A stretch of 64,000 nt of DNA from Flavobacteriales bacterium (GTDB lineage Bacteria; Bacteroidota; Bacteroidia; Flavobacteriales_C; GCA-002722245): assembly GCA_947444925.1 (NCBI GenBank), contig CANFBW010000010.1:3915-67914 (forward strand). Direction: 5' to 3'. Of the stretch, positions 4,980-53,347 are shown in pieces; positions within the stretch are counted from its first letter, which is position 1, and each line of letters begins with the position of its first letter. The notes under the pieces are model-generated. The model saw nothing but the letters and a program-made list of their open reading frames with translations. It made no database searches and was not told the origin of the DNA. A program made the position numbers and the translations under genes.

Positions 4980-6820
4980 TGTTGACCTACTTGCACCGCA
5001 ATATTGTTTTTCTGCTTTTCAGCGTTAGCTGCCTAACAGTAAGCCCTTCTTTCGGTCAAGACAATGGACAAATACAATTCAACTTAGGGAAACAATTTTA
5101 CGGCGAGGGCGAGTTTGACAAGTCCTCTGAAATTTTTGAAGAGCTCTATAAAAAATCAAAATCAGAAGAAGTTTACGAATATCTGCTGACCAGTTATGTG
5201 TCTGCAAAAATGTACAAGGCCGCGGAGAAACTGGTGGAGAAAAAAATAAAAGATTTTCCGAAAAGCACGCTTTACCCCATCGACCTTGGATTTGTGTATA
5301 CCGCAGCGGCAGACGAAAAAAAGGCAACTAAAAGTTTTGAAAAATCGTTGGCGTTATTGCCCGCCGACAATCAAGAAATTATTGTGTGTGCTGGTCGCTT
5401 CCTCAAAAGAAAGCAAGCCAACTGGGCCATTCAATGCTACTTGAAAGGGCGAAAACTGGTGCACAACGATTACCCTTTTTCATTTGAACTCGCTGATGTT
5501 TACCGTTCGCAAGACAACTATTCAGAAATGATCAACGAATATTTGTATGTTCTTGAATATGGCGAAGGCTACTTATCAGAAGTGCAAAATGCATTACTCA
5601 ACGCCATCGGAGAAGATCCTCAGGGCCGAAAGAAACAAGTACTGAAAGACAACCTACTCAAGAAAATTCAAGAGAATCCAAGCAACGATCTCTACCTCGA
5701 AATGCTAATTTGGGAGTTGATTCAAGAAAAAGAATTTTCGGCAGCACTCACCCAAACAAAAGCGATAGACAAGCGGAAGCGCGAGGATGGACAACGTTTG
5801 ATGCGCCTCTCTGAACTTTGTTTGAAAAACGAAGATTACGACAATGCCGCCAAAGCACTGAAATATGTCATCGACAAAGGCGAAAACAGCATGTATTACC
5901 GTCACGCCAAAATGAATTTATTGAAGGTGTTGAATCAAAAAATTACAACACGTCCCGACTACACCACACAAGATTTATCGGAATTGCAAAGCGCTTATGT
6001 TTCAGGGTTGAACGAACTCGGAAAAAACACTTTTACGCTCGAGATGATGCAAGACTATGCGCATTTACTGGCCTTCTTTTTGCACCAACCCGAAAAAGCA
6101 ATAGTCCTTTTAAAGGAAGCCATTGCTATGCCACGCGCCAGCGTTCAACAAATTGCGGATAGTAAATTGGAGCTGGGTGACATCTACCTGATATCCAACA
6201 AAATTTGGGATGCAAGTCTGCTCTATTCACAAGTAGAATTGGATTTCAAATACGATGTCATTGGACAGGATGCCAAATACAGAAATGCAAAAATATCTTA
6301 CTACAGTGGCGACTTCAAATGGGCCAAAGCACAACTCGATGTATTGAAAGCGGCCACCGATCGCTACATCGCCAACGACGCCATGTATTTGTCGATACTC
6401 ATCACCAGCAATACCTTGCTCGACACCATCACTACCCCTCTTGAAATGTTTGCAAGAGCCGATTTACTTGAATTTCAAAACCAAGATTCACTCAGCATGC
6501 TGACCTTGGATTCGCTTGAAAAAGAATTCAAGTCGCGCTACAATCTAATGGATGACGTGAGCTATTTACGCGCACAAATATATTTAAAAAAACACCTGTG
6601 GACACAAGCCGCAGAAGCGCTTCAAAAGACTTATGAATACAAAGATTTACTGGCTGACGACGCGCTGTTCAAACTCGCTGAACTTTATGAAAATGTGTTG
6701 AACGACAAAGTAAAAGCGCAAGCAAAATATGAAGAAATACTATTTAAATTTCCGGGCAGCATCTACGTTGAAGAAGCCCGCAAAAGATTCAGAAGGTTAC
6801 GAGGAGATAAAGAATTTTAA
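4976..6820 (+). CDS. Tetratricopeptide-repeat protein with an N-terminal signal peptide
   Basis: 614 aa with a hydrophobic N-terminus and repeated TPR-like A/Y/L-spaced helices. The start overlaps the serS stop (ATGA). Confidence 0.7.
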   Translation: MMLTYLHRNIVFLLFSVSCLTVSPSFGQDNGQIQFNLGKQFYGEGEFDKSSEIFEELYKKSKSEEVYEYLLTSYVSAKMYKAAEKLVEKKIKDFPKSTLYPIDLGFVYTAAADEKKATKSFEKSLALLPADNQEIIVCAGRFLKRKQANWAIQCYLKGRKLVHNDYPFSFELADVYRSQDNYSEMINEYLYVLEYGEGYLSEVQNALLNAIGEDPQGRKKQVLKDNLLKKIQENPSNDLYLEMLIWELIQEKEFSAALTQTKAIDKRKREDGQRLMRLSELCLKNEDYDNAAKALKYVIDKGENSMYYRHAKMNLLKVLNQKITTRPDYTTQDLSELQSAYVSGLNELGKNTFTLEMMQDYAHLLAFFLHQPEKAIVLLKEAIAMPRASVQQIADSKLELGDIYLISNKIWDASLLYSQVELDFKYDVIGQDAKYRNAKISYYSGDFKWAKAQLDVLKAATDRYIANDAMYLSILITSNTLLDTITTPLEMFARADLLEFQNQDSLSMLTLDSLEKEFKSRYNLMDDVSYLRAQIYLKKHLWTQAAEALQKTYEYKDLLADDALFKLAELYENVLNDKVKAQAKYEEILFKFPGSIYVEEARKRFRRLRGDKEF

Positions 6821-10959: not shown

Positions 10960-13900
10960 TTATAGCGTGTAACGCAAACTGATTCCGCCGTTGGAAGTTG
11001 ACGATGGAAAAGAAAGCGAGTTGGCAGGTGTGTTAAACACCACATCATAAAATACGCGCAAGTTCAATTTGTCGCTGAGCACGTAATCGGCAACGCTTTT
11101 AACGCTCACGATGTTTGTTCCATTTTGAACAATAGAACCCCCATCGATCGTACGCAAAATGGTTTTGCTTTGCGTCACCGTTAGGTCGACACGCAGATCC
11201 AAATTGCTCTTTATTTTTTTTCCCATCACGAGAATAGGGAAACGCACATCTTTTATCTTATACCCTGTTCCAGCAGTGATGCCAAAATTTGACACTTCCG
11301 ACACAGATAACCCCGTTAAATTCAATTGCACGGTTCTTGTTTTCTTCAATTCAAATTTCGCAATCCAACTACTCTTCAAAGTAGCGTCAACTTTAACAAG
11401 CGGACTCAAACTCTCGGACATTACGATCGAAGCATAATTGTACTTCGATACAAAATTTCCCGATTGTCCAACAGTATCGGCTTTAGTTGTGTAGCCAAAC
11501 CCATCGTCTTCAAAAGACAGATTTTTAGAAAATCCCTGATTGAGGGTTGATGTGTACGAATGGCTCATTGTAAAAGACTGGAAATACTTGGCTACAAAAG
11601 GAATTTTCATCATTCCATCGTAATTCAATTTCCAGTTCGGCAAAGGTATTTTAGGCATTGTTACCATAGGCGATGAAACTGCATTTCCACCCGTGTATGC
11701 CGTAATGAAAGATTGCACCAATACATCGGTTTGGGTTCGTCCGTAGCCAGTTGGAAAACCGCCGGTCGTGCTCGGATTGTAATTCGGATCAGCATTGTGC
11801 TGATCGGCAGCCAATCGAGAGGCAATACCTGCGCGACTGTTCAAAAATGCCGTGTACACAACCGATGCATTGTCGGTATTTCCAAACTCAAATGCCGATC
11901 CCAAAGTAATGGTTGTAATGCTGAAAGTGTACGTTGCCGTAGACGAAAAATTACTAACGTTCTGCTGCGCATCGACGCGATAAATAAATGACGAGTCTTT
12001 GCTGAAAGCGCGCGTTCCCGTTAGCTCAATGCGCATTTTGGGGATGGGTTCCATCGTAGCGCGCACGCTAAGGTTTTCGCTGTGCGATCGCGAGTACCGT
12101 GTATTGAGTTGTTGTGAATTGGTGGTGAGCCAACCTTCGCGCGCCGCCTTCGACAAAATATCGCCTTGCCCGCCAAACAAGAAATCGGCTCCCGGCGAAT
12201 TCCGATCAAAGTCCATTCCCACCAAACGCGTATTGGGCACATAACCCGGCAAGAAAGTGCCATTGTTTTCAGAATACGTAAACGAAGCATTGCGCAACAG
12301 CATCACCAAACGCAAAGCAGAATTCACCAAATTCAAAGGTTCAAAAACAACTTTCTTTTTAGTGCTGTCGGTAGCAGCAGGCTTCGGCTTATTGCCTGCT
12401 TCATTGTTGATTTTTTTGAGATAAGGAATTTTATTATAGAAAGAAACAAGATTGAAATTCGCCGTCAGCTGCTCCGTATTGCTATTGGAAATAGTATTGT
12501 TGATCGACTCAAAAGAAAGAGGTGCCGCTTGCCAGTCAACCTTCGCTGTGTACTTAGCGTTGGCGGTGATCCAATCGGTAAATGGAATTTTTTTCAATGG
12601 CAACTCATAACCAAAATCCATAGTTTGAGAGAAGTTGGTGTTGCGTCCAAAATTTTTAAGATTGGTAACCAAAGTATCTTGTTTCACTTTGGTGTCGATA
12701 CGACCTTGCGGCTCATCGATACGCGCTCTATTTACCGCAGCATACTTGAACTTTATGGCCTTGCTAAGGTCCCAACTCACATCGTAATTTCTATCCCAAT
12801 AAAAGTTTTTATTGAACACTGGCGCAATCAATAAAACTGCGTCGGAATTATTGCGAACAATACTTTCGTTATACAAACGATTCCAGTCGCTGCGCACTGC
12901 AATTCGCGAAGGCATCAAATAAAAATTAAATTCACGACCAATTTTATTGTACGGCGACTGCATCAAACCCTTTGCTGCTTTTGTGAAAGCAGCCTTTTTA
13001 TCCTGCACCTTCTTCATTTCTTTTTCCAATTTCGACAATTCAGCGGTCGCAGTTTTCTGCTTGCGCAAACGATCGATTTCTTCCTGCATCCTGCTCACCT
13101 TTTCCTCATAGCTTTCCTCTCTCACCTTCTTAAAAAATCCAACAATGGGGCTTTGAATAAAGGGCTGAAAATTTTTCGGCTGTATCGTATAATTGTAATT
13201 CAACGCACCTTTGTAGGTTTGTAAAACATTGTACCGTGTATTCACATCACTCTTAAATGTTTCATTAAAAGCATAGGTTGCGTCAAAGTTCTCAATGTCA
13301 TATGGCATTGGTTTCGCAGTAGAAGTACTGCTTCTATTTTTTCGCACATTTGATAAATTCAAACTCTTTCGGCGCTGGTAGGTTTGCGCGCTGTCTTGCA
13401 CTTTTCGGCGTACGTCGGGACTCAATGATGTCATGAGCACATCTTGGTCAAGCGGACTGAATTGCTGGTTTTGAAAAGTCTCAGAATAACCCAAATAAAC
13501 AGGAATAGAAACATTGTACTTCGCAGGAATCAACTTACCCAATTCTAAACTCGCCAAGGCATCGTACATTTGATAATATTCTTTTTTTCGCGCCGCAACT
13601 TTATCGGTAATGTTACCCCATCCTGGCGTGTACATTTTACCGGTTACAGAAAGGTTGGCAAAGTCGGCTAATTTCATACTCGCCGTAGCCGTAGCCGCCC
13701 ATCCGCTTTGGTCGTTAAAACAAGACAAACGCAATTCGTTCGCCCAAACACCCAAAGATCTTTTTACACCAGGATCACCGTTGTTGCGCACCCCAATCAT
13801 GATCACTTTAATAGAAGACATCGTTGGAGAACCTTTCACATAAACGTTGTTTTTTCCGTGCACCACTCGATAGCGCTGCGATTTAAAGAAGTTCGCAGGA

Positions 13901-16900
13901 TCAGCGGCCAAGGCCTCATTGCGCTCTAACTTCGCCTCGGTAAGCAAGGACAAATCAAAGTCAAAGGAATTTTGCGACGGCCAAATCGCAGCAATAGCCG
14001 CTTCTCTATTGTTGATGTCGATAGGACCTTCGGTAAATTTCATTGGAATTTCATACTCGTAGTAATTGTCATCGAAGTCAGAACCCATTCTCAAAAAAAC
14101 ACTCATTTTATTGTTGTAGTCTTCCGCCGCATTTCCTTTTTTTTCAGCGTGCACAAACATTTTCAAGCAGTTGTATGCGCGCATGTCGATGGTAGTGTTT
14201 TTAAACGCAGCTCGAGAATCGCAGCCATCTAAATCATCAATATTCAAGTACAATGCCTGCTCGTTCATATTCGCTTGCGTTTGCACATTGTACACCCTTT
14301 CCACTGGTGGTACATATGGAATAGGATCCTTCTGACTGTCTTCTTCCACGTTGATTGATGTCACTACAAACTGAGTATTGTTGTCGTTGGCCACAAACTC
14401 ACATTCACCCTTCATTTGGTTTTCGTACTTTCTCCATGTTTCACGCACCAAGTCAATTTTTCCAAAACGCAAAATCACTGGTTTACTCCAACCTTTCAAT
14501 AAAATACGGATATAACGCATTGACCTAAAATCCTGAATAGAACCAATAGCGCGCTCAGGCTTACGAATGGGAATGCGAAAATGAATCCATCTCGACTTTA
14601 CGTTATTCTTACCATATCCATTGATCGTCCCAACGCTGGGACTCACAATGTTGTTGATGTAGTTGCGGCCTGCCTCTTGATCCACCAATTGCAAATCGTT
14701 CGGGCGCAATGAAATGTGGTATTGGTAATAACTTTCTCCCTCATTTAGTGTGTTGTCTCTATTAAGATCTTCAATATCGGGAATCGTTGTTGCCGATGCC
14801 AAGTACGCCGAATTGGTACTCGCAGGTGAGTTACCGTGCACGCCACTAAAATCTTTGTATCGCTCAATTACCTTTGATTGTGCAGAATTGAATGATTCAT
14901 CACGGTAGTGTTTAAAGTTGTCGGCCGACGGGTCATCGGCAATCGACTGCGGTATCGCGCCAAATGCACCATTGTAATAATTCAGATATTTATTGAAAAA
15001 CACTTTCTCTCTATCGTCCGTCAAGCCATCATAACCCACATCTTGAAAAGGTCGAGTAGCAGGGTCATTGTTGAATGCATTTACGAGATTGAGCGAAGTG
15101 GGCACCAATCCCCAAGCGGTAGTGTCAACAGTAGAAAGATCTGTATTGTTGGTGGGCAAGCCATTTTCAAAGGATTTCCTGGAATCGCGTAAGACGTCTT
15201 CCGACAGATTTCCAATATGTATGATCATGTCTCCACCCTCTTGTGACCCATTAAAAATTTCATAATCCTTTTGCGCACCATCATCATCAAAAAAAGGATC
15301 AAGCATCCAGAATTCTAAAAACTCAATGTTGGAAAACTCGAAATCGGGCGTTTCAATTTTACGCATGATACCACCCCAGCGCGAATTGGGATCTTTCAAA
15401 GTACCGTTGGCATTGACACCCGCCGAATAAATACCGCCCACAGTATCAAAATTGTACTGACCACGTTCTTGCGGATAGTAGGCTAAATCAAGCGTAATCA
15501 AATTGGGTACAATTCCGTTTTGTCCTGATTTCTGCGGAAATACTTCTGTCTGATTGATAGGACGCACAAAGTTGTTGTTTTGCTGCGCCGCGTCATTTTT
15601 CAAGTAATCGGGTGTAAGTCCGCTATTGTCGCTAAACAAAGGATCAATATTGTACCACGACATCTTGGCGCGGTTGAAGCCATTTGCCAAGTCGTTAAGC
15701 AATCGTCCTTCGGGGAACATGCCGCTTTCTTCCAAGCCGTGTGGGGTTGAAGCCGGAAACCATGAAGTACGAACCGTTAATGTGGTGTTGCTTTCGGCGC
15801 CTTCAAAGTTGTCAATAAAAGACTCCCCTCTGCCACTGTTCACATTTTGTATGGCGGAAGATGTGCCAGGCAGAAGTTGCGCAAATTCACCGGTAACATC
15901 AATAGTTGACATTTCCTTGGTCGAGAGCAAAGGCAATTTATCAAGCACCTTAGTCACGAACGGCAAGTCTGTTCGGTATTTGGTATTTAATCCCCAAATG
16001 GTATTCGACATTGGTTCTTCGCCTATATCGACCTTCGATGTCAAAGGGCGTTCCGTTAAATTCATAATGGTACCACCCAAATTAAAATTGTCGGAAAATT
16101 TGTATTCAAGATGTGAGCCCAATAAATTTTTAGTTTGAATACTGAACAATGCGTTGGTTTCAAGCGAGACTTTTATGGGCGTTGAGGAATTTAAAATCCC
16201 TTCGTTGATGATCGTTACTTGTCCACCACTATAGTTCACCGTATAATCCTGATTTTCCACCAAACGCTTTCCACCGGCGGTAACCACAACAGATCCCTGA
16301 GGAATGTTCATTGAATTAAGGTTTATTACCGAAGATTGACTGCTTTCGTACTTCACCCAAAATTTAAAACGGTCTTTCGCCGGATATTTTGTTTGCGCCG
16401 CAATAGGCGTGACAGCGTACAAAGAGTCGAAACAATATTTATTGGCAAGAGCTGCATTGTTCAATTTTTTGCGCAAGTATTCTCCAAAAGGTTTGCGCAC
16501 AGGAAAGTAAATTCGGCCATTGGTCGCCTTAATGGTGAGGCCTTCGATAAAGTCGTAAAATCCATCAGAGATTTTATCTTGCTGAATATTCATTTGATCG
16601 GCGCCCATCAACTCTACCCAGCGCTTGGCTTTGTCGCCGCCCAAATCCACAAAGTTGATATCTTGATTAGAAGACGGATCGGTGTACAAAATCTGCATTT
16701 GAAATGTTTCGCCTTTGATGCCCGATTCTCCCAAAGAATAAACGTTCTTCATCATCAACTCCCAAGTGGGAAGATGCGTGTTGTTGACCGTGTTAGTTTT
16801 CAAGAGCTTGAGAAAAAGCGCCTGCGCACTATTGGTGATATCGTTGCTGAATTCACCCACTTGAAAAACTTCGGTTTTACCGGTAACAGTGTACTGAAAG

Positions 16901-18201
16901 GCAACCGCCAAAATTTCGTCGGCGTTCAACTGGCGATTCAAAGAGATGTATCCCAATTGCGGATGAAAAGTAAATTCATCAGATTTCAGCTTGCGTGCAT
17001 TTTCAATTTTATTAAAGTTTGCGCCTTCCACATAGCCCATTGCGCTTAAAGCTCCACTGGCATTGGTGAAACTTCGCACGTTGCCATTGGCCGTCACGTT
17101 TCCGTATAAATTATTTAAATTGTTGTAAGGATACAAACCTGAATTCACGAAGAGATTGGCATCAAAGGGAAGGTGTTCACCCAAATCTATGAAGCCCACA
17201 ATTTTTCGCGCTTCCTCATTGTTGTTGTTTCCAACGTTGGTAATCCACACTTCGACTCTGGTGAGCTGCACGGCTGAATTCACAAAAGGCAAAGCACTCA
17301 AAGCACTGTCATAACTCTCAGCAAAATACTGCGACAGAAAAAAATGCCGGTTGGCTTCGTACTGGTCGGCCTGAATTTTAAAATCGCGAATTTGCACGCC
17401 ACCACTGGTTTCAATACTTTTTGAATCACCCTTTTGCTGCGTAACGATAGAGGTTACATTGAGCTTGCCAAACTGCATTTCTGCCTTCACCCCAAACAAA
17501 CTCTGACTGCCCTGAATCAACTGCGTTTGCAATGGCAGACTGACATTACCAACTTCTATCTTTTTTACAATTTCATCTTCACTACCATTGTACTCCAACT
17601 TCATTTGATTTTCAAAATCAAAGGTCGATTCGGTGTTGTAACTCGTGGTAAGTTTCAATTTATCGCCTATCGTTCCAGTGATATTGAGCTGTATTTTTTG
17701 ATTGAACTGAAAATTGGTATTCGTCTGATTCCGCACTGGAATTGCAGGATTCTTTGTAGTTGAAGAGTTGAGTCCGAAAATCAACTCCGCAGAACCTGTG
17801 GGTTTGATTTCAACTTTATTGCTACCAAAGAGTCCATCGACCAAACCACCTTGGGGCAATTTAAGTTGGGGCAATAGCGACTTCTCTTTGTCGAAATTCT
17901 CTGCCTTCGCCTTCTCCTGAAAATACTTTTTTTCCGATTGCTTGTAGCGCTCGTCCCAGTATTGGTCAAAGGTCATTGTTTCTGTGCCCACCACCACATC
18001 ACCAATCTTTCGTACTTTTTTATACTTTTTAGTTTCGGCATCATAAGTCACCTCTTCCTTCACCGCCGCCGGATCATCGGTATAAGGTTGCGATACTTTA
18101 AATGCAGTATCCGCCTGAGCAACAATTTGCTCTGCACACAATACCTGCAGCAAGAGGATTACCGCCCAAAGAGGAAAGCTATTTTGAAAATATTTTTTCA
18201 C
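10960..18201 (-). CDS. sprA: Type IX secretion system translocon SprA (Sov)
   Basis: 2413-aa outer-membrane protein with a signal peptide (MKKYFQNSFPLWAVILLLQVLCAEQIVAQ). Size and sequence character match the giant SprA beta-barrel of gliding Bacteroidota. The GTG start sits directly after the ruvA stop. Confidence 0.85.
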   Translation of the reverse strand: MKKYFQNSFPLWAVILLLQVLCAEQIVAQADTAFKVSQPYTDDPAAVKEEVTYDAETKKYKKVRKIGDVVVGTETMTFDQYWDERYKQSEKKYFQEKAKAENFDKEKSLLPQLKLPQGGLVDGLFGSNKVEIKPTGSAELIFGLNSSTTKNPAIPVRNQTNTNFQFNQKIQLNITGTIGDKLKLTTSYNTESTFDFENQMKLEYNGSEDEIVKKIEVGNVSLPLQTQLIQGSQSLFGVKAEMQFGKLNVTSIVTQQKGDSKSIETSGGVQIRDFKIQADQYEANRHFFLSQYFAESYDSALSALPFVNSAVQLTRVEVWITNVGNNNNEEARKIVGFIDLGEHLPFDANLFVNSGLYPYNNLNNLYGNVTANGNVRSFTNASGALSAMGYVEGANFNKIENARKLKSDEFTFHPQLGYISLNRQLNADEILAVAFQYTVTGKTEVFQVGEFSNDITNSAQALFLKLLKTNTVNNTHLPTWELMMKNVYSLGESGIKGETFQMQILYTDPSSNQDINFVDLGGDKAKRWVELMGADQMNIQQDKISDGFYDFIEGLTIKATNGRIYFPVRKPFGEYLRKKLNNAALANKYCFDSLYAVTPIAAQTKYPAKDRFKFWVKYESSQSSVINLNSMNIPQGSVVVTAGGKRLVENQDYTVNYSGGQVTIINEGILNSSTPIKVSLETNALFSIQTKNLLGSHLEYKFSDNFNLGGTIMNLTERPLTSKVDIGEEPMSNTIWGLNTKYRTDLPFVTKVLDKLPLLSTKEMSTIDVTGEFAQLLPGTSSAIQNVNSGRGESFIDNFEGAESNTTLTVRTSWFPASTPHGLEESGMFPEGRLLNDLANGFNRAKMSWYNIDPLFSDNSGLTPDYLKNDAAQQNNNFVRPINQTEVFPQKSGQNGIVPNLITLDLAYYPQERGQYNFDTVGGIYSAGVNANGTLKDPNSRWGGIMRKIETPDFEFSNIEFLEFWMLDPFFDDDGAQKDYEIFNGSQEGGDMIIHIGNLSEDVLRDSRKSFENGLPTNNTDLSTVDTTAWGLVPTSLNLVNAFNNDPATRPFQDVGYDGLTDDREKVFFNKYLNYYNGAFGAIPQSIADDPSADNFKHYRDESFNSAQSKVIERYKDFSGVHGNSPASTNSAYLASATTIPDIEDLNRDNTLNEGESYYQYHISLRPNDLQLVDQEAGRNYINNIVSPSVGTINGYGKNNVKSRWIHFRIPIRKPERAIGSIQDFRSMRYIRILLKGWSKPVILRFGKIDLVRETWRKYENQMKGECEFVANDNNTQFVVTSINVEEDSQKDPIPYVPPVERVYNVQTQANMNEQALYLNIDDLDGCDSRAAFKNTTIDMRAYNCLKMFVHAEKKGNAAEDYNNKMSVFLRMGSDFDDNYYEYEIPMKFTEGPIDINNREAAIAAIWPSQNSFDFDLSLLTEAKLERNEALAADPANFFKSQRYRVVHGKNNVYVKGSPTMSSIKVIMIGVRNNGDPGVKRSLGVWANELRLSCFNDQSGWAATATASMKLADFANLSVTGKMYTPGWGNITDKVAARKKEYYQMYDALASLELGKLIPAKYNVSIPVYLGYSETFQNQQFSPLDQDVLMTSLSPDVRRKVQDSAQTYQRRKSLNLSNVRKNRSSTSTAKPMPYDIENFDATYAFNETFKSDVNTRYNVLQTYKGALNYNYTIQPKNFQPFIQSPIVGFFKKVREESYEEKVSRMQEEIDRLRKQKTATAELSKLEKEMKKVQDKKAAFTKAAKGLMQSPYNKIGREFNFYLMPSRIAVRSDWNRLYNESIVRNNSDAVLLIAPVFNKNFYWDRNYDVSWDLSKAIKFKYAAVNRARIDEPQGRIDTKVKQDTLVTNLKNFGRNTNFSQTMDFGYELPLKKIPFTDWITANAKYTAKVDWQAAPLSFESINNTISNSNTEQLTANFNLVSFYNKIPYLKKINNEAGNKPKPAATDSTKKKVVFEPLNLVNSALRLVMLLRNASFTYSENNGTFLPGYVPNTRLVGMDFDRNSPGADFLFGGQGDILSKAAREGWLTTNSQQLNTRYSRSHSENLSVRATMEPIPKMRIELTGTRAFSKDSSFIYRVDAQQNVSNFSSTATYTFSITTITLGSAFEFGNTDNASVVYTAFLNSRAGIASRLAADQHNADPNYNPSTTGGFPTGYGRTQTDVLVQSFITAYTGGNAVSSPMVTMPKIPLPNWKLNYDGMMKIPFVAKYFQSFTMSHSYTSTLNQGFSKNLSFEDDGFGYTTKADTVGQSGNFVSKYNYASIVMSESLSPLVKVDATLKSSWIAKFELKKTRTVQLNLTGLSVSEVSNFGITAGTGYKIKDVRFPILVMGKKIKSNLDLRVDLTVTQSKTILRTIDGGSIVQNGTNIVSVKSVADYVLSDKLNLRVFYDVVFNTPANSLSFPSSTSNGGISLRYTL

Positions 18202-23160: not shown

Positions 23161-24099
23161 TTAAAATTGGCTTACCACAGCTTTTGATTTCAAAATACCA
23201 TTCACCTTTTCAAGCAAGGCAAAAGACGCTTCAACATCGTTTTTTCGAATGGCCACGCTTTCAATATTGAAGCCGTAAGGGATGTCGTTTAAAGCACAAT
23301 AATTGGCAAGAGTTTGTGCAACTTCAAAACAAATCTGCAATGACTCCTGTAAAATATCCTCGGCTGTTTGCATGCGCTGTTTATGCGCGTCGGCAATATG
23401 AATACCCAACCATTCCATGAACTCTACAGTCTTTAATGAACCACAAGTACTGAGCGTAAAAATGATCGTAGGCAATGCTTGTTGCGATCTTTGACAAGCC
23501 TCTTTAAGTGCTTCCAGCATTGCAATAGTGTATTCTTCATTAAAAACACATTGGGTGACAAAATAAGAAACACCACTTTTCACTTTGTCTAAAATGCGTT
23601 GGTCTTCGTCTTTCAAAACAACATGGCGCTCTGGTATGCAAATAGCGCCCATCACTGATTTTTCTTGGTAATCAGACCACAATTGATAGGCCTCTGGCAA
23701 GGAAATTTTAGGCACATAATCCGGAGAAGGAATGCCTACCAAAACAGGATGCAAATTGTTTTGATGCATATTTAAAAACCAATCCGCAATTTCCAACTGC
23801 GTATACTTTCCAGCGGGACGGTAAATGATTTTTGCCACATTCAAATCCGCCAAATAATTCACGGCATAGTGCATAGGATCCATTGCAGGCTGAAAGGGAA
23901 AAGGCCGCGCTTCCTTTGTACGGGTAGATTCATCTTGCACATCATACACAATCAACGCATCGAGATTTACAGTTTTAAGGCGTGCAATGCTGCGTTGCGC
24001 TGACTCCAATACTTTTTCTAAAGGTGTTTCCAGCTTCGGCGGTGTTACACCGTAGATCAATACAGCGGATGTTCGGTTCTTTATTTTTTGCAAAAACAT
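23161..24099 (-). CDS. Methylenetetrahydrofolate reductase-like (MTHFR superfamily) protein
   Basis: 312 aa. IYGVTPPK near the N-terminus, and SYFVTQCVFNEE plus LPTIIFTLSTCGS resemble the ITQ.FFD / PI.PGI.P blocks of MetF-like TIM barrels. This is recognition by eye only. Confidence 0.45.
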   Translation of the reverse strand: MFLQKIKNRTSAVLIYGVTPPKLETPLEKVLESAQRSIARLKTVNLDALIVYDVQDESTRTKEARPFPFQPAMDPMHYAVNYLADLNVAKIIYRPAGKYTQLEIADWFLNMHQNNLHPVLVGIPSPDYVPKISLPEAYQLWSDYQEKSVMGAICIPERHVVLKDEDQRILDKVKSGVSYFVTQCVFNEEYTIAMLEALKEACQRSQQALPTIIFTLSTCGSLKTVEFMEWLGIHIADAHKQRMQTAEDILQESLQICFEVAQTLANYCALNDIPYGFNIESVAIRKNDVEASFALLEKVNGILKSKAVVSQF

Positions 24100-24165: not shown

Positions 24166-24210
24166 TAAAAATGAAGATAAGGCATTCACAAATGCAAGAA
24201 GGATAAGCAT

Positions 24211-25104
24211 TTAGTTTTTCAGAAATTTCTGATAAAATACAGCGTGCTCCGCTTGCACGCGCAGGAAGTAGAGTCCTGTCGCGAAATCTGAACAGTCGAT
24301 TTGACGCAGCGCTTCGCTATTGAAAATACTTTTCTCACAATTGATTTGCTGACCACTGGCATTGAAAATTTGCACTTCGCTGCTATTTCCAACAGCTACG
24401 GTCAATAGGTCGCTGACTGGATTTGGATAGAGTACAATTGACGACGACCGCAGCAATTCATGGCGCTGTGTCGCTGCAAAAGCAACACAGCCTGAAGTAT
24501 CTGAACAAGCATTTTTAGTGAGGACAACAGCATAATTTCCGTTTTGCGTGAGTACAAGTTTTTGAAGTGTATCATTGGGTAGCACAGAATTTGCATTGCC
24601 ACAGTCTATCCACTGGTATGCAGCACTCGCGTCTTGCGCAATCAATGTGTCATCATTTTTCACGACAGCAAGATCCAGAGAATCTATCACCAACTGCAAA
24701 CGCAAAACACTGTCGCAAGCCTTGGCACTCGGCAAAGTATCGAGATAAAAACCGGCTGTTTTCCTGTACGTAAAATTGAACATAACGCTGTCTCCCTTGC
24801 ACAAATTCAACACCAACGTACTGTCGTACCTGGGAATCAAACGCAGCGTAGACTCTTTTTGAATATTGTAATCAGCCAGAGTTCTACCGTCTTCGAGACA
24901 ATGGCCTGCAAAAACCAATCGCTGCTGGTCGGGCGGTATGCCTTCTTTGTCTTGAATCTTAGCTTTAATGGCATCAATGGTATCGGACGCTTCCACCTCA
25001 AGGGCAATTGTTTTGCCAGTCAATGTCTTGACGAAAACCTGCATCGCGAACAATGAAAAAACATGCAAAAACAGAAAGCAAAAGGCAAGTATCTTTTTAC
25101 GCAT
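24211..25104 (-). CDS. Secreted eukaryotic-type ubiquitin domain fused to Cys-containing modules and a T9SS C-terminal sorting domain
   Basis: The signal peptide [20 protein letters not shown] is followed directly by [72 protein letters not shown]. The last 75 aa or so ([12 protein letters not shown]...[21 protein letters not shown]) match the Por/T9SS sorting-domain pattern. I prefer the ATG at 25104 as the start; the ORF-track start is at 25158. Confidence 0.85.
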
Positions 25105-25167
25105 TGATATATTGTGAAAATGTGTGGCTAAGATAGGTTTTCGTTGTCGCAAAAACAAACCCGAAAG

Positions 25168-53274: not shown

Positions 53275-53347
53275 GGTGCCTTAGCTCAGTCGGTAGAGCA
53301 GCAGACTGAAAATCTGCGTGTCGCTGGTTCAATTCCAGCAGGCACCA
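53275..53347 (+). tRNA. tRNA-Phe (anticodon GAA)
   Basis: I folded the cloverleaf by hand. Acceptor stem GGTGCCT/AGGCACC, D stem GCTC/GAGC, anticodon stem GCAGA/TCTGC with loop CTGAAAA, T stem GCTGG/CCAGC with loop TTCAATT. The discriminator is A and CCA is not encoded. Confidence 0.95.

Follow-up and report, generated by a model that had tools for sequence, protein, structure and literature searches.

A 64,000-nucleotide stretch of DNA from a Flavobacteriales bacterium (GenBank assembly GCA_947444925.1, contig CANFBW010000010.1, positions 3,915 to 67,914; here called the window) was found to contain a gene whose predicted product joins a signal peptide, a ubiquitin domain, two cysteine-containing stalk modules and a C-terminal sorting domain (CTD) of the type IX secretion system (T9SS). 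This is almost certainly a real chromosomal gene for a bacterial exported T9SS cargo with a ubiquitin head, and the gene is very probably a member of a wide class of surface ubiquitins under long-term purifying selection. On balance, we favour the full explanation that the protein is a surface-displayed, non-conjugatable mimic of ubiquitin.

Architecture of the predicted protein

The gene runs on the minus strand from an ATG at 25104 to a stop codon at 24211-24213 and its 297 codons specify a 297-residue product (open reading frame (ORF) 24214..25104(-)); a longer frame that begins with TTG extends to 25158. The parts of the gene are listed below with the evidence used to define them.

24211..25104, minus strand: whole gene, with signal peptide, ubiquitin, stalk modules and T9SS type A CTD (ORF list and translation)
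25045..25104, minus strand: Sec signal peptide, residues 1-20 (predicted from the layout of n-, h- and c-regions and from class comparison)
24829..25044, minus strand: ubiquitin domain, residues 21-92, equivalent to ubiquitin residues 1-72 (PF00240, identity, AlphaFold 2 and Foldseek)
24673..24828, minus strand: stalk module 1, residues 93-144, with two Cys, of the type C-x-GDS ... G-x-Y-x-DTL ... CDS (repeat relatives)
24433..24672, minus strand: stalk module 2, residues 145-224, with three Cys, of the type YQWIDC ... NGNYAV ... C-x-DTS-x-C (relatives P0002-P0005)
24214..24432, minus strand: T9SS type A C-terminal sorting domain, residues 225-297 (PF18962 and TIGR04183)

An earlier reading of this DNA, made without database searches (the sequence-only reading), had proposed this order of signal peptide, ubiquitin, Cys modules and T9SS CTD, and the architecture was supported by the translation together with Pfam and TIGRFAM. 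Everything that reading had stated about the ORF, its translation and the substitutions in it held on re-check. A recount of the ubiquitin domain gave the same 59 identical residues of 72, without gaps, when compared with human ubiquitin (82%). Searches against ubiquitin chains in the PDB using phmmer returned E values of about 1e-33 per unit, and PF00240 matched residues 23-89 (E=6.5e-25, 87.1 bits against a cutoff of 25.4). The domain differs from human ubiquitin by I3V, T14A, P19A, E24D, N25A, V26I, I44V, K48H, Q49C, S57A, H68R, V70I and L71P. The alignment bore out that K6, K11, K27, K29, K33 and K63, six of the seven lysines, are retained, that K48 is His, and that the L8/I44/V70 patch is conservatively kept as L/V/I. 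When AlphaFold 2 was run on a 34-row alignment, residues 21-92 were modelled with a predicted local distance difference test score (pLDDT) of 78-94. Foldseek superimposed this predicted structure on solved ubiquitin chains with a root-mean-square deviation of 0.7-1.0 Å over 72-73 residues and target TM-scores of 0.9-0.97, so that in the model the domain folds as ubiquitin and is a beta-grasp fold.

The end of the domain departs from this pattern. YDST stands in place of LRGG (RYDST for RLRGG), and the frame continues for 205 residues past the ubiquitin. Domains of E1, E2, E3, JAB or deubiquitinase (DUB) type were found neither in the 27 window ORFs scanned with Pfam nor among Pfam matches precomputed for the stretch of genes that runs from ActB to SprA, in agreement with the earlier statement that none of these flanks the gene. 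Because the domain has no Gly-Gly, is fused at its C-terminus and has no E1, E2 or E3 encoded nearby, we predict that it is incapable of canonical conjugation, as had been proposed.

The signal peptide, assigned by eye, opens with a basic n-region, continues in a hydrophobic core of 15 residues and has Ala at -1. Signal peptidase I is predicted to cut at A20|M21 (SLFA|MQVF), directly before Met1 of ubiquitin. A lipoprotein reading of the same segment (LAFC) was dropped, as Phe at -1 is unfit for a lipobox. When its codons were compared with those of a sister allele at locus L085, described below, no non-synonymous and one synonymous change were found, and we take the signal peptide to be under purifying selection. 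The database calls P0131 (NCBI) and P0135 (ENA), each of 277 residues, begin at the ubiquitin Met and lose the 20-residue signal peptide. Gene calls of this kind would hide the export of the protein, which is relevant to annotation.

A stalk and sorting domain shared with other T9SS proteins

No Pfam family was matched by residues 93-224, and the AlphaFold 2 confidence for these middle modules was below 50 pLDDT, with no fold obtained. Relatives of the modules were found in proteins with other heads. The part of the stalk formed by module 2 is 34-40% identical to the CTD-proximal part of ubiquitin-less Bacteroidota T9SS proteins (P0002-P0005), in which module 1 is present as well. Module 1 (residues ~84-145) is also repeated tens of times in giant proteins, with up to 77 matched stretches in P0167 (5877 residues); further examples include P0176, P0184, P0189, P0191 and P0193, the stalk being a common T9SS repeat. 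An exhaustive HMMER search revealed that the order of module 1, module 2 and CTD closes P0303 and P0311, two T9SS proteins with N-terminal cohesin domains. Since the same stalk and CTD end large T9SS proteins with other heads, the window protein looks like a minimal T9SS surface protein, composed of a ubiquitin head, a short stalk and a sorting domain.

The sorting domain itself was matched by PF18962 (Por_Secre_tail) on residues 225-294/297 (E=1.8e-13, 51 bits against a cutoff of 27) and by TIGR04183 (43.5 bits against a cutoff of 23). Thus the models for ubiquitin (PF00240) and for the T9SS CTD (TIGR04183) that the earlier reading had named both scored above their cutoffs. T9SS machinery is encoded in the same genome by sprA, 6 kb from the gene, the other components being located outside the window. 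A search with the non-ubiquitin part returned no second fusion of ubiquitin with a type A CTD, and only the window's own 90% cluster contained ubiquitin. A whole-protein search of a representative set of 1.84 billion proteins was dominated by eukaryotic polyubiquitins and stalk-repeat giants and gives no count of relatives; likewise, a search of a 5.8-billion-protein set with signal peptide plus ubiquitin was dominated by eukaryotic polyubiquitins and gives no bacterial count. One T9SS protein that shares the stalk, P0269, gave a weak Prok-E2_D match at residues 46-68 (26 bits, with no stretch passing alone), which is probably spurious.

After removal of the CTD, the mature protein would contain six Cys, namely Cys49 in the 46-49 loop of ubiquitin, two in module 1 and three in module 2. 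Cys49 is retained in the sister allele L085, in which residue 48 is Arg instead of His. Because the number of Cys in module 2 is odd in all relatives, a disulfide between the ubiquitin head and the stalk is conceivable.

A wider class of exported prokaryotic ubiquitins

The position of ubiquitin in other prokaryotes was surveyed by scanning for the domain in one genome per species over 185,579 prokaryotic species, which gave at least 356 confirmed loci; the class survey is of the best 80 of these. About half of the best 80 loci lie on very short contigs of low coverage that carry ubiquitin-ribosomal fusions or RLRGG-MQIF polyubiquitin in tandem, and these look like eukaryotic contamination of isolate assemblies. 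The contaminant contigs are 0.2-1.1 kb long and carry plant- or fungus-type tandem polyubiquitin, and where NODE-style names state the coverage it is 0.01-3.5x. Loci of this type (GTDB) are L005-L010, L013-L017, L019, L021, L023-L025, L036, L040, L044, L048-L050 and L054, and the isolate assemblies affected include those of Marinobacter salinexigens, Rugosimonospora acidiphila, Ectobacillus ponti and Microbacterium karelineae.

The remaining loci lie on large contigs or complete chromosomes and are spread over at least seven bacterial phyla and one archaeon. The carriers include Brevundimonas sanguinis (complete chromosome CP116770), Dyella spp. (cultured isolates), Collimonas, Sediminihaliea, Kapabacteria, Fibrobacter, Ruminococcus and other Clostridia, Verrucomicrobiota, Saprospiraceae, Sphingobacteriaceae, Flavobacteriia, Actinomycetota, Bacteriovoracaceae and one Methanotrichaceae archaeon. 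A common plan was seen, in which a signal peptide with its cleavage site directly before Met1 of a 76-86% identical ubiquitin, usually without Gly-Gly, is combined with the lineage's own surface anchor. We define the class by two features, a surface anchor of the host's type and a ubiquitin that shares at least 75% identity with the eukaryotic protein and whose Met1 immediately follows a signal peptidase site; the window protein has the SLFA|MQVF junction and a T9SS type A anchor. Besides the window copy, 44 prokaryotic ubiquitin units follow directly on a signal peptide (A|MQIF), with Ala at -1 in 34 of the 44 and at -3 in 32.

The anchors identified using hidden Markov models (HMMs) are diverse. 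Ubiquitin is the only passenger of an autotransporter beta-domain in L076 (E=5.8e-41) and also in L012, L047, L011 and L020. IPTL-CTERM follows directly after ubiquitin in L034 and after a choice-of-anchor U domain in L063; L057 has a choice-of-anchor U domain and a similar hydrophobic tail that does not match the IPTL-CTERM model. A dockerin follows ubiquitin in L060 and L051. In L068, another T9SS cargo ubiquitin, GLUG, YDG and MBG repeats lead to a T9SS type B CHU_C domain (E=3.6e-19), and TIG, Big_2 and Listeria-Bacteroides repeats were found downstream in other members. By eye, sortase-type LAxTG/SPKTG signals were recognised in L033 and L081.

Some loci vary this plan. Free genes of signal peptide plus ubiquitin occur in soil Pseudomonadota, in L042 (a Collimonas metagenome-assembled genome (MAG)), L059 (Dyella sp. 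OK004) and L039, L055 and L079 (Dyella spp.), with the match at about 6001-6216 in each. They end in an intact RLRGG and stop in L042 and L059, in RL in L039 and L079 and in RLRGY in L055, and the five share a conserved upstream neighbour of 370 residues that looks secreted. Two ubiquitin genes each, as tandem or nearby paralogues, are present in L057, L070, L071, L033 and L075, and the second copy in L071 is strongly diverged (43/72 to the window). In L067 (6001-6582), ubiquitin is joined in one frame to another, diverged ubiquitin-like domain and to a membrane anchor. A signal peptide could not be recognised before Met1 in L067 or in the actinomycetotal L033, L056 and L075, yet L033 ends in a LAFTG sortase-type signal; in these four the start codons may have been miscalled or another export route may be used. 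Near-identical genes for signal peptide, ubiquitin and autotransporter appear under different phylum labels in L012 (Akkermansiaceae), L045 (Luteolibacter) and L065 (labelled Gammaproteobacteria), as illustrated by MRNLTWLRTVILSFSLALTVEASA and MRKLICLRTIILSISFALTVEASA, a likeness that reflects either whole-gene transfer or a binning error.

Viral copies present a different state. Among the best 80 loci from IMG/VR (L090-L169, many of them giant-virus MAGs), all 77 of 77 ubiquitin units keep LRGG, whether free or extended and fused, and no signal peptide was found before ubiquitin in these 80 loci. Since the viral copies have LRGG and no signal peptide, export without Gly-Gly appears as the prokaryotic state.

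The class genes were then compared at codon level. The GC content at third codon positions (GC3) of the ubiquitin codons follows the GC content of the locus (r=0.87, n=42), ranging from 0.18 on a 35%-GC Flavobacteriia contig to 0.99 on a 72%-GC Cellulomonas contig, which argues that the genes are resident and ameliorated. Among the ubiquitin domains the median pairwise proportion of synonymous differences (pS) was 0.88, which is saturated, and that of non-synonymous differences (pN) was 0.096. Over 49 distinct sequences, agreement with human ubiquitin reaches at least 95% at 41 of the 72 positions, including 28 of the 54 non-core positions, the list of core residues being drawn from general knowledge of ubiquitin structure. 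K6, K11, K27, K29, K33 and K63 are each kept in 94-100% of the class, K48 being the least kept lysine (78%), and LRGG is retained in 6 of 51 copies. With LRGG mostly lost and the surface kept, the conjugation end seems dispensable and most of the surface does not.

Authenticity of the gene and structure of the locus

The exact 297-residue protein was found on at least seven contigs of independent assemblies (ENA, Logan and NCBI), the largest of 204 kb, and its context is invariant on them, with ruvB-queG on one side and a gene for a 312-residue protein on the other. The sister allele mentioned above, P0127 at locus L085, is 92% identical and has the same fusion at the same position. GC content is 0.463 in the ubiquitin part, 0.444 in the middle and 0.443 in the CTD, and the GC3 of the gene is 0.453 compared with 0.429 +/- 0.051 over 35 window ORFs, revealing a native GC3 and no composition break at the domain border.

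These data bear on a risk that the sequence-only reading had itself named, namely an assembly chimera, or contaminating eukaryotic DNA attached to a T9SS gene of bacterial origin. Small polyubiquitin contaminant contigs are common in isolate assemblies, and such chimeras do occur. An example is L086 (ENA ERZ19567623, GROS21 scaffold_128936, 1.5 kb), from another sample, where a 95-residue 'variant', P0129, at 314-601 is an assembly chimera: it is 100% identical to the window gene over 249 nt, then switches inside the conserved ubiquitin stretch AATATTCAAAAAGA to a canonical ubiquitin end (TIHLVLRLRG and a stop) followed by AT-rich DNA. For the window gene, however, the identical full gene recurs on the seven or more contigs from different assemblies and assemblers in a constant core-genome context, the diverged sister allele has the same fusion, composition is native throughout, and the fusion is in frame with a signal peptide under purifying selection. 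An artefact is excluded on these grounds, save for a vanishingly small residual chance.

Two further features describe the setting of the gene.

10960..18201, minus strand: sprA, the T9SS outer-membrane translocon (PF14349 SprA_N, E=3.8e-161)
24172..25167, minus strand: lineage-specific indel of approximate extent, consisting of the gene and its own short flanks (alignment with syntenic relatives)

The PF14349 match places SprA about 6 kb away, as the earlier reading had it. With genes for IF-2, NusA, Mfd, SerRS, alternative complex III, cytochrome oxidase, RuvA/RuvB and SprA, the window belongs to the core chromosome of a member of the Bacteroidota; NCBI gives the names of Bacteroidota or Flavobacteriales bacterium MAGs to proteins that share 90% or more identity with its COX1 and RuvB. 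Of the two neighbours named in the earlier reading, queG was confirmed by PF08331/Fer4_16, whereas the MTHFR-like assignment fell short: the 312-residue gene downstream (23161-24099, minus strand) matched MTHFR at 19.3 bits against a cutoff of 24. This gene is conserved in all syntenic relatives, and its 'MTHFR-like' label appears weakly founded.

In the close relatives L087 (GCA_026390935.1), L088 and L089, gene order between the oxidase genes and sprA matches that of the window except that the ubiquitin gene is missing, and queG and the 312-residue gene are about 72 nt apart. The extra ~1 kb of the window sits between the queG stop and a conserved AT-rich TTAAATATATTTACC-like block upstream of the next gene. 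From this alignment, we interpret the window gene as a single-gene, ~1-kb lineage-specific indel; no mobile-element genes or flanking repeats were noticed at it. A sigma-70 promoter and terminator scan gave nothing beyond shuffled expectation, Bacteroidota promoters being outside its models, and an Rfam scan of the window matched only a tRNA at 53275-53347.

Evolution and origin of the window copy

The window gene was compared with L085. The ratio of non-synonymous to synonymous divergence (dN/dS) was 0.72 for ubiquitin, 0.38 for the stalk and 1.68 for the CTD, the last from few sites, compared with 0.09 for queG, and the contrast between ubiquitin and queG was significant (Fisher p=0.005). 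At ubiquitin positions that are constant elsewhere, L085 shows radical substitutions (D24W, K29M, G47S and G53D). Surface proteins in conflicts are often under diversifying selection. The pattern would reflect either diversifying selection on the ubiquitin head or relaxed constraint in the window lineage.

Two residues of the window domain are enriched in prokaryotic copies. A14 occurs in 9 of 48 prokaryotic units compared with 6 of 147 eukaryote-type units (Fisher p=0.003), and V44 in 12 of 48 compared with 3 of 147 (Fisher p=4e-6), the eukaryote-type units being those retrieved by the 5.8-billion-protein search. Six copies, from members of the Pseudomonadota, Actinomycetota and Bacteroidota, have the two residues together (p=0.014), suggesting, without proving, that the ancestor of the window ubiquitin was a variant already resident in bacteria. 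Only the window lineage has H48 and C49, and R68, I70 and P71 are rare in the class. The closest prokaryotic copy matches the window domain at 61 of 72 positions, and no close donor was present among the copies compared.

The sequence-only reading had concluded that the domain was acquired from a eukaryote. This holds for its ultimate origin; the immediate source was more probably a bacterial pool than a eukaryote, because the junction of signal peptide and Met1, the loss of Gly-Gly and A14/V44 are shared with prokaryotic copies and the codon composition is native. If ubiquitin had instead been captured directly and recently from a eukaryote or its virus, independently of other bacteria, one could account for the lack of a close bacterial donor, for the gene being a recent indel and for the finding that eukaryotic ubiquitins (up to 85-88% identity) resemble the domain as closely as any bacterial copy does (at most 61/72). 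However, synonymous sites are saturated relative to every eukaryote-type unit tested and GC3 is native; the junction and the missing Gly-Gly are the shared prokaryotic state, A14 and V44 co-occur in six copies across three phyla, and the copies from eukaryotic viruses all have LRGG and no signal peptides. We consider direct capture unlikely.

Comparison with known systems

Known T9SS type A cargo includes the gingipains of Porphyromonas gingivalis and many Flavobacterium surface proteins. Like such cargo, the window protein has a predicted Sec signal peptide, a head, a stalk and an immunoglobulin-like CTD of about 75 residues; unlike it, the head is ubiquitin and not an enzyme, adhesin or cohesin. 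Compared with eukaryotic ubiquitin (PF00240; PDB 1UBQ-type), the window domain shares the fold, the 59/72 identity and six of seven lysines, but it is exported, permanently fused and without LRGG, bears K48H and Q49C, and has no E1, E2, E3 or DUB partners nearby. The 'choice-of-anchor' domains of NCBIfam offer a parallel to the class, as prokaryotic ubiquitin is paired with T9SS type A and B, autotransporter, IPTL-CTERM, sortase-type and dockerin anchors, and adjoins a choice-of-anchor U domain itself in L057 and L063. The differences are that prokaryotic ubiquitin is of eukaryotic origin and has no NCBIfam model (only sub-threshold Rad23 hits).

The precedent cited in the sequence-only reading was BfUbb (also BUbb), a ubiquitin homologue that Bacteroides fragilis and other Bacteroides secrete (PMC3352274, PMC5705921, PMC11467351). 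BfUbb kills related strains via a periplasmic peptidyl-prolyl isomerase (PPIase) and is imported by the SusCD-type transporter ButCD (PMC5705921, PMC11467351); it demonstrates that a ubiquitin exported by a bacterium can have biological activity (PMC3352274, PMC5705921, PMC11467351). The two proteins are alike in that both are from Bacteroidota, have a signal peptide directly before a ubiquitin derived from eukaryotes, vary between strains or lineages and are exported, as predicted for the window protein; both are without the C-terminal Gly-Gly and without ubiquitin enzymes encoded with them. By its published description, BfUbb is free, has about 76 residues after cleavage, ends in Cys and is 63% identical to human ubiquitin (PMC3352274). 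It lies in a low-GC island, is exported without a T9SS signal and has a known target, the PPIase, and a known importer, ButCD. The window protein, in contrast, is fused to a stalk and T9SS type A CTD, is 82% identical to human ubiquitin and has native composition. The earlier view that its architecture departs from that of free BfUbb therefore stands, whereas BfUbb is not the only precedent, given the large anchored class in public genomes.

Other systems are more distant. The secreted ubiquitin-extension effectors of plant-parasitic nematodes (Globodera), as reviewed in one source (PMC5705921), likewise have a signal peptide, ubiquitin and a non-canonical C-terminal extension and are delivered to another organism; by the same account they differ in having a eukaryotic producer, an extension cleaved in the plant cell and a conjugation-competent ubiquitin. 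Bacterial conjugation systems of ubiquitin-like proteins (ThiS/MoaD, Bil/Bub and related E1-E2-DUB operons; PMC11601603, PMC11601596) share with the window protein only a beta-grasp fold in a prokaryote. Their proteins are cytoplasmic, end in Gly, are encoded with E1, E2 or JAB and are distant in sequence from ubiquitin, and none of this applies to the window protein. Searchable full text, from which subscription journals are mostly missing, yielded no account of T9SS-borne ubiquitin, of ubiquitin carried by an autotransporter or of ubiquitin serving generally as a surface module. Thus, exported bacterial ubiquitin was already known, and the wider surface-anchored class is apparently undescribed.

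Proposed function and alternatives

By the biology of T9SS type A cargo, Sec would export the window protein and signal peptidase I would cut before Met1 of ubiquitin. The CTD would guide transfer through the SprA translocon and then be removed, and the protein would either leave the cell or stay attached to its outer surface, with the ubiquitin head outermost. Because it cannot be conjugated, the ubiquitin would act by being bound, as a look-alike ligand. A putative role is that proposed in the sequence-only reading, of an effector aimed at eukaryotic ubiquitin machinery or at competing bacteria. Since several members of the class carry nothing but ubiquitin as passenger or extracellular domain, we infer that its display may be the function itself.

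The class also bears on the simpler idea that no mimicry is involved and ubiquitin serves as a stable, fast-folding, protease-resistant N-terminal cap or as a folding or solubility aid, perhaps a decaying relic in this lineage. Ubiquitin is a classical stabilising fusion partner. In the class it is always N-terminal, the first part out of the Sec channel, and its downstream partners are extremely varied; the relaxed constraint in the window lineage (dN/dS 0.72) would fit as well. In autotransporter and IPTL-CTERM members, however, ubiquitin has nothing to assist, being alone as passenger or extracellular domain. Moreover, the core alone would suffice for such a role, yet those 28 of 54 non-core positions stay at least 95% human-identical despite saturated synonymous divergence, and they include six of the seven lysines and the F4, L8 and D58 surfaces. 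We judge this explanation quite improbable for the window protein, and a purely structural role is unlikely for the class.

A second alternative is a weapon of the BfUbb kind, in which the ubiquitin head reaches competitors, is taken up by a TonB-dependent (SusCD-type) transporter able to recognise ubiquitin-like proteins, and poisons a periplasmic target such as a peptidyl-prolyl isomerase, with T9SS providing only delivery. Among exported ubiquitins of bacteria, function has been tested for BfUbb alone (PMC5705921, PMC11467351), and the window organism is also one of the Bacteroidota. The window gene is lineage-variable and fast-evolving, as interbacterial toxins often are, free ubiquitins with signal peptides exist in Dyella and Collimonas, and import via a transporter adapted to real ubiquitin would also explain the conservation. 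On the other side, no immunity-like or transporter gene adjoins the window gene, and an all-versus-all comparison of neighbouring ORFs found no partner gene shared across 43 loci, the largest 'cluster' consisting of antisense shadow ORFs over the ubiquitin gene. The window ubiquitin is fused to a stalk and a surface-sorting domain and is not free, and in many class members an autotransporter barrel, IPTL-CTERM or sortase signal ties ubiquitin permanently to the cell. Some members of the class are from Gram-positives and an archaeon, where a periplasmic target is inapplicable, and BfUbb has drifted to 63% identity when the class stays at 76-86%. An antibacterial role is unlikely, but the BfUbb precedent makes a bacterial target a serious alternative.

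Returning to the ubiquitin mimic that we favour, its reader could be a ubiquitin-recognising protein of a grazer, host, alga or fungus. A eukaryotic reader is preferred because only a partner adapted to authentic ubiquitin explains so much surface conservation; as to purpose, mimicry directed at eukaryotes is a tentative proposal, to which we give somewhat less than even weight. Protist grazing is generally heavy in rumen, activated sludge, lakes and soil, and the record names of the carriers point to samples from rumen, activated sludge, lake and soil. More speculatively, the class may represent an ancient, horizontally spreading inter-kingdom mimicry aimed at the ubiquitin readers of phagotrophic or host eukaryotes, in at least seven phyla and an archaeal lineage.

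Several points weigh against the mimicry explanation. Function, for the window gene as for class members outside Bacteroides, is deduced from sequence, and the signal peptide assignment depends on inspection by eye and on comparison with the class. At 87 bits, the window ubiquitin scores lowest among the bacterial ubiquitin domains scored by Pfam (others 90-110). Within the window's own lineage, the L085 comparison indicates that the domain is not tightly conserved, and the window copy may be diverging from true mimicry, as BfUbb (63% identity) has. Ubiquitin on a bacterial surface lies outside the eukaryotic cytosol, the home of ubiquitin readers, and the route of contact is assumed. The survey covers the best 80 of at least 356 loci, and the taxon labels of MAG contigs can be wrong. 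Finally, BfUbb, the only studied precedent, targets bacteria rather than eukaryotes (PMC5705921, PMC11467351).

Significance

Ubiquitin is the textbook example of a near-invariant protein found only in eukaryotes. A publication of 2018 still named BfUbb as the sole ubiquitin homologue of bacteria (PMC6194340). The results presented here make exported, non-conjugatable ubiquitin a recurrent surface module in bacteria of lakes, sludge, soil, rumen and gut, beyond Bacteroides. Since ubiquitin is held nearly constant though no ubiquitin machinery adjoins the genes, something outside the cell must read it, and if the eukaryote-directed proposal is true, surface ubiquitin could alter the fate of the bacterium during or after uptake. 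The cultured carriers, Dyella spp. and Brevundimonas sanguinis, make the question directly testable with standard anti-ubiquitin reagents. The class also has a bearing on antigenic mimicry of ubiquitin by microbes (PMC6194340), and finding the reader would open a field of interaction between bacteria and eukaryotes or among bacteria.

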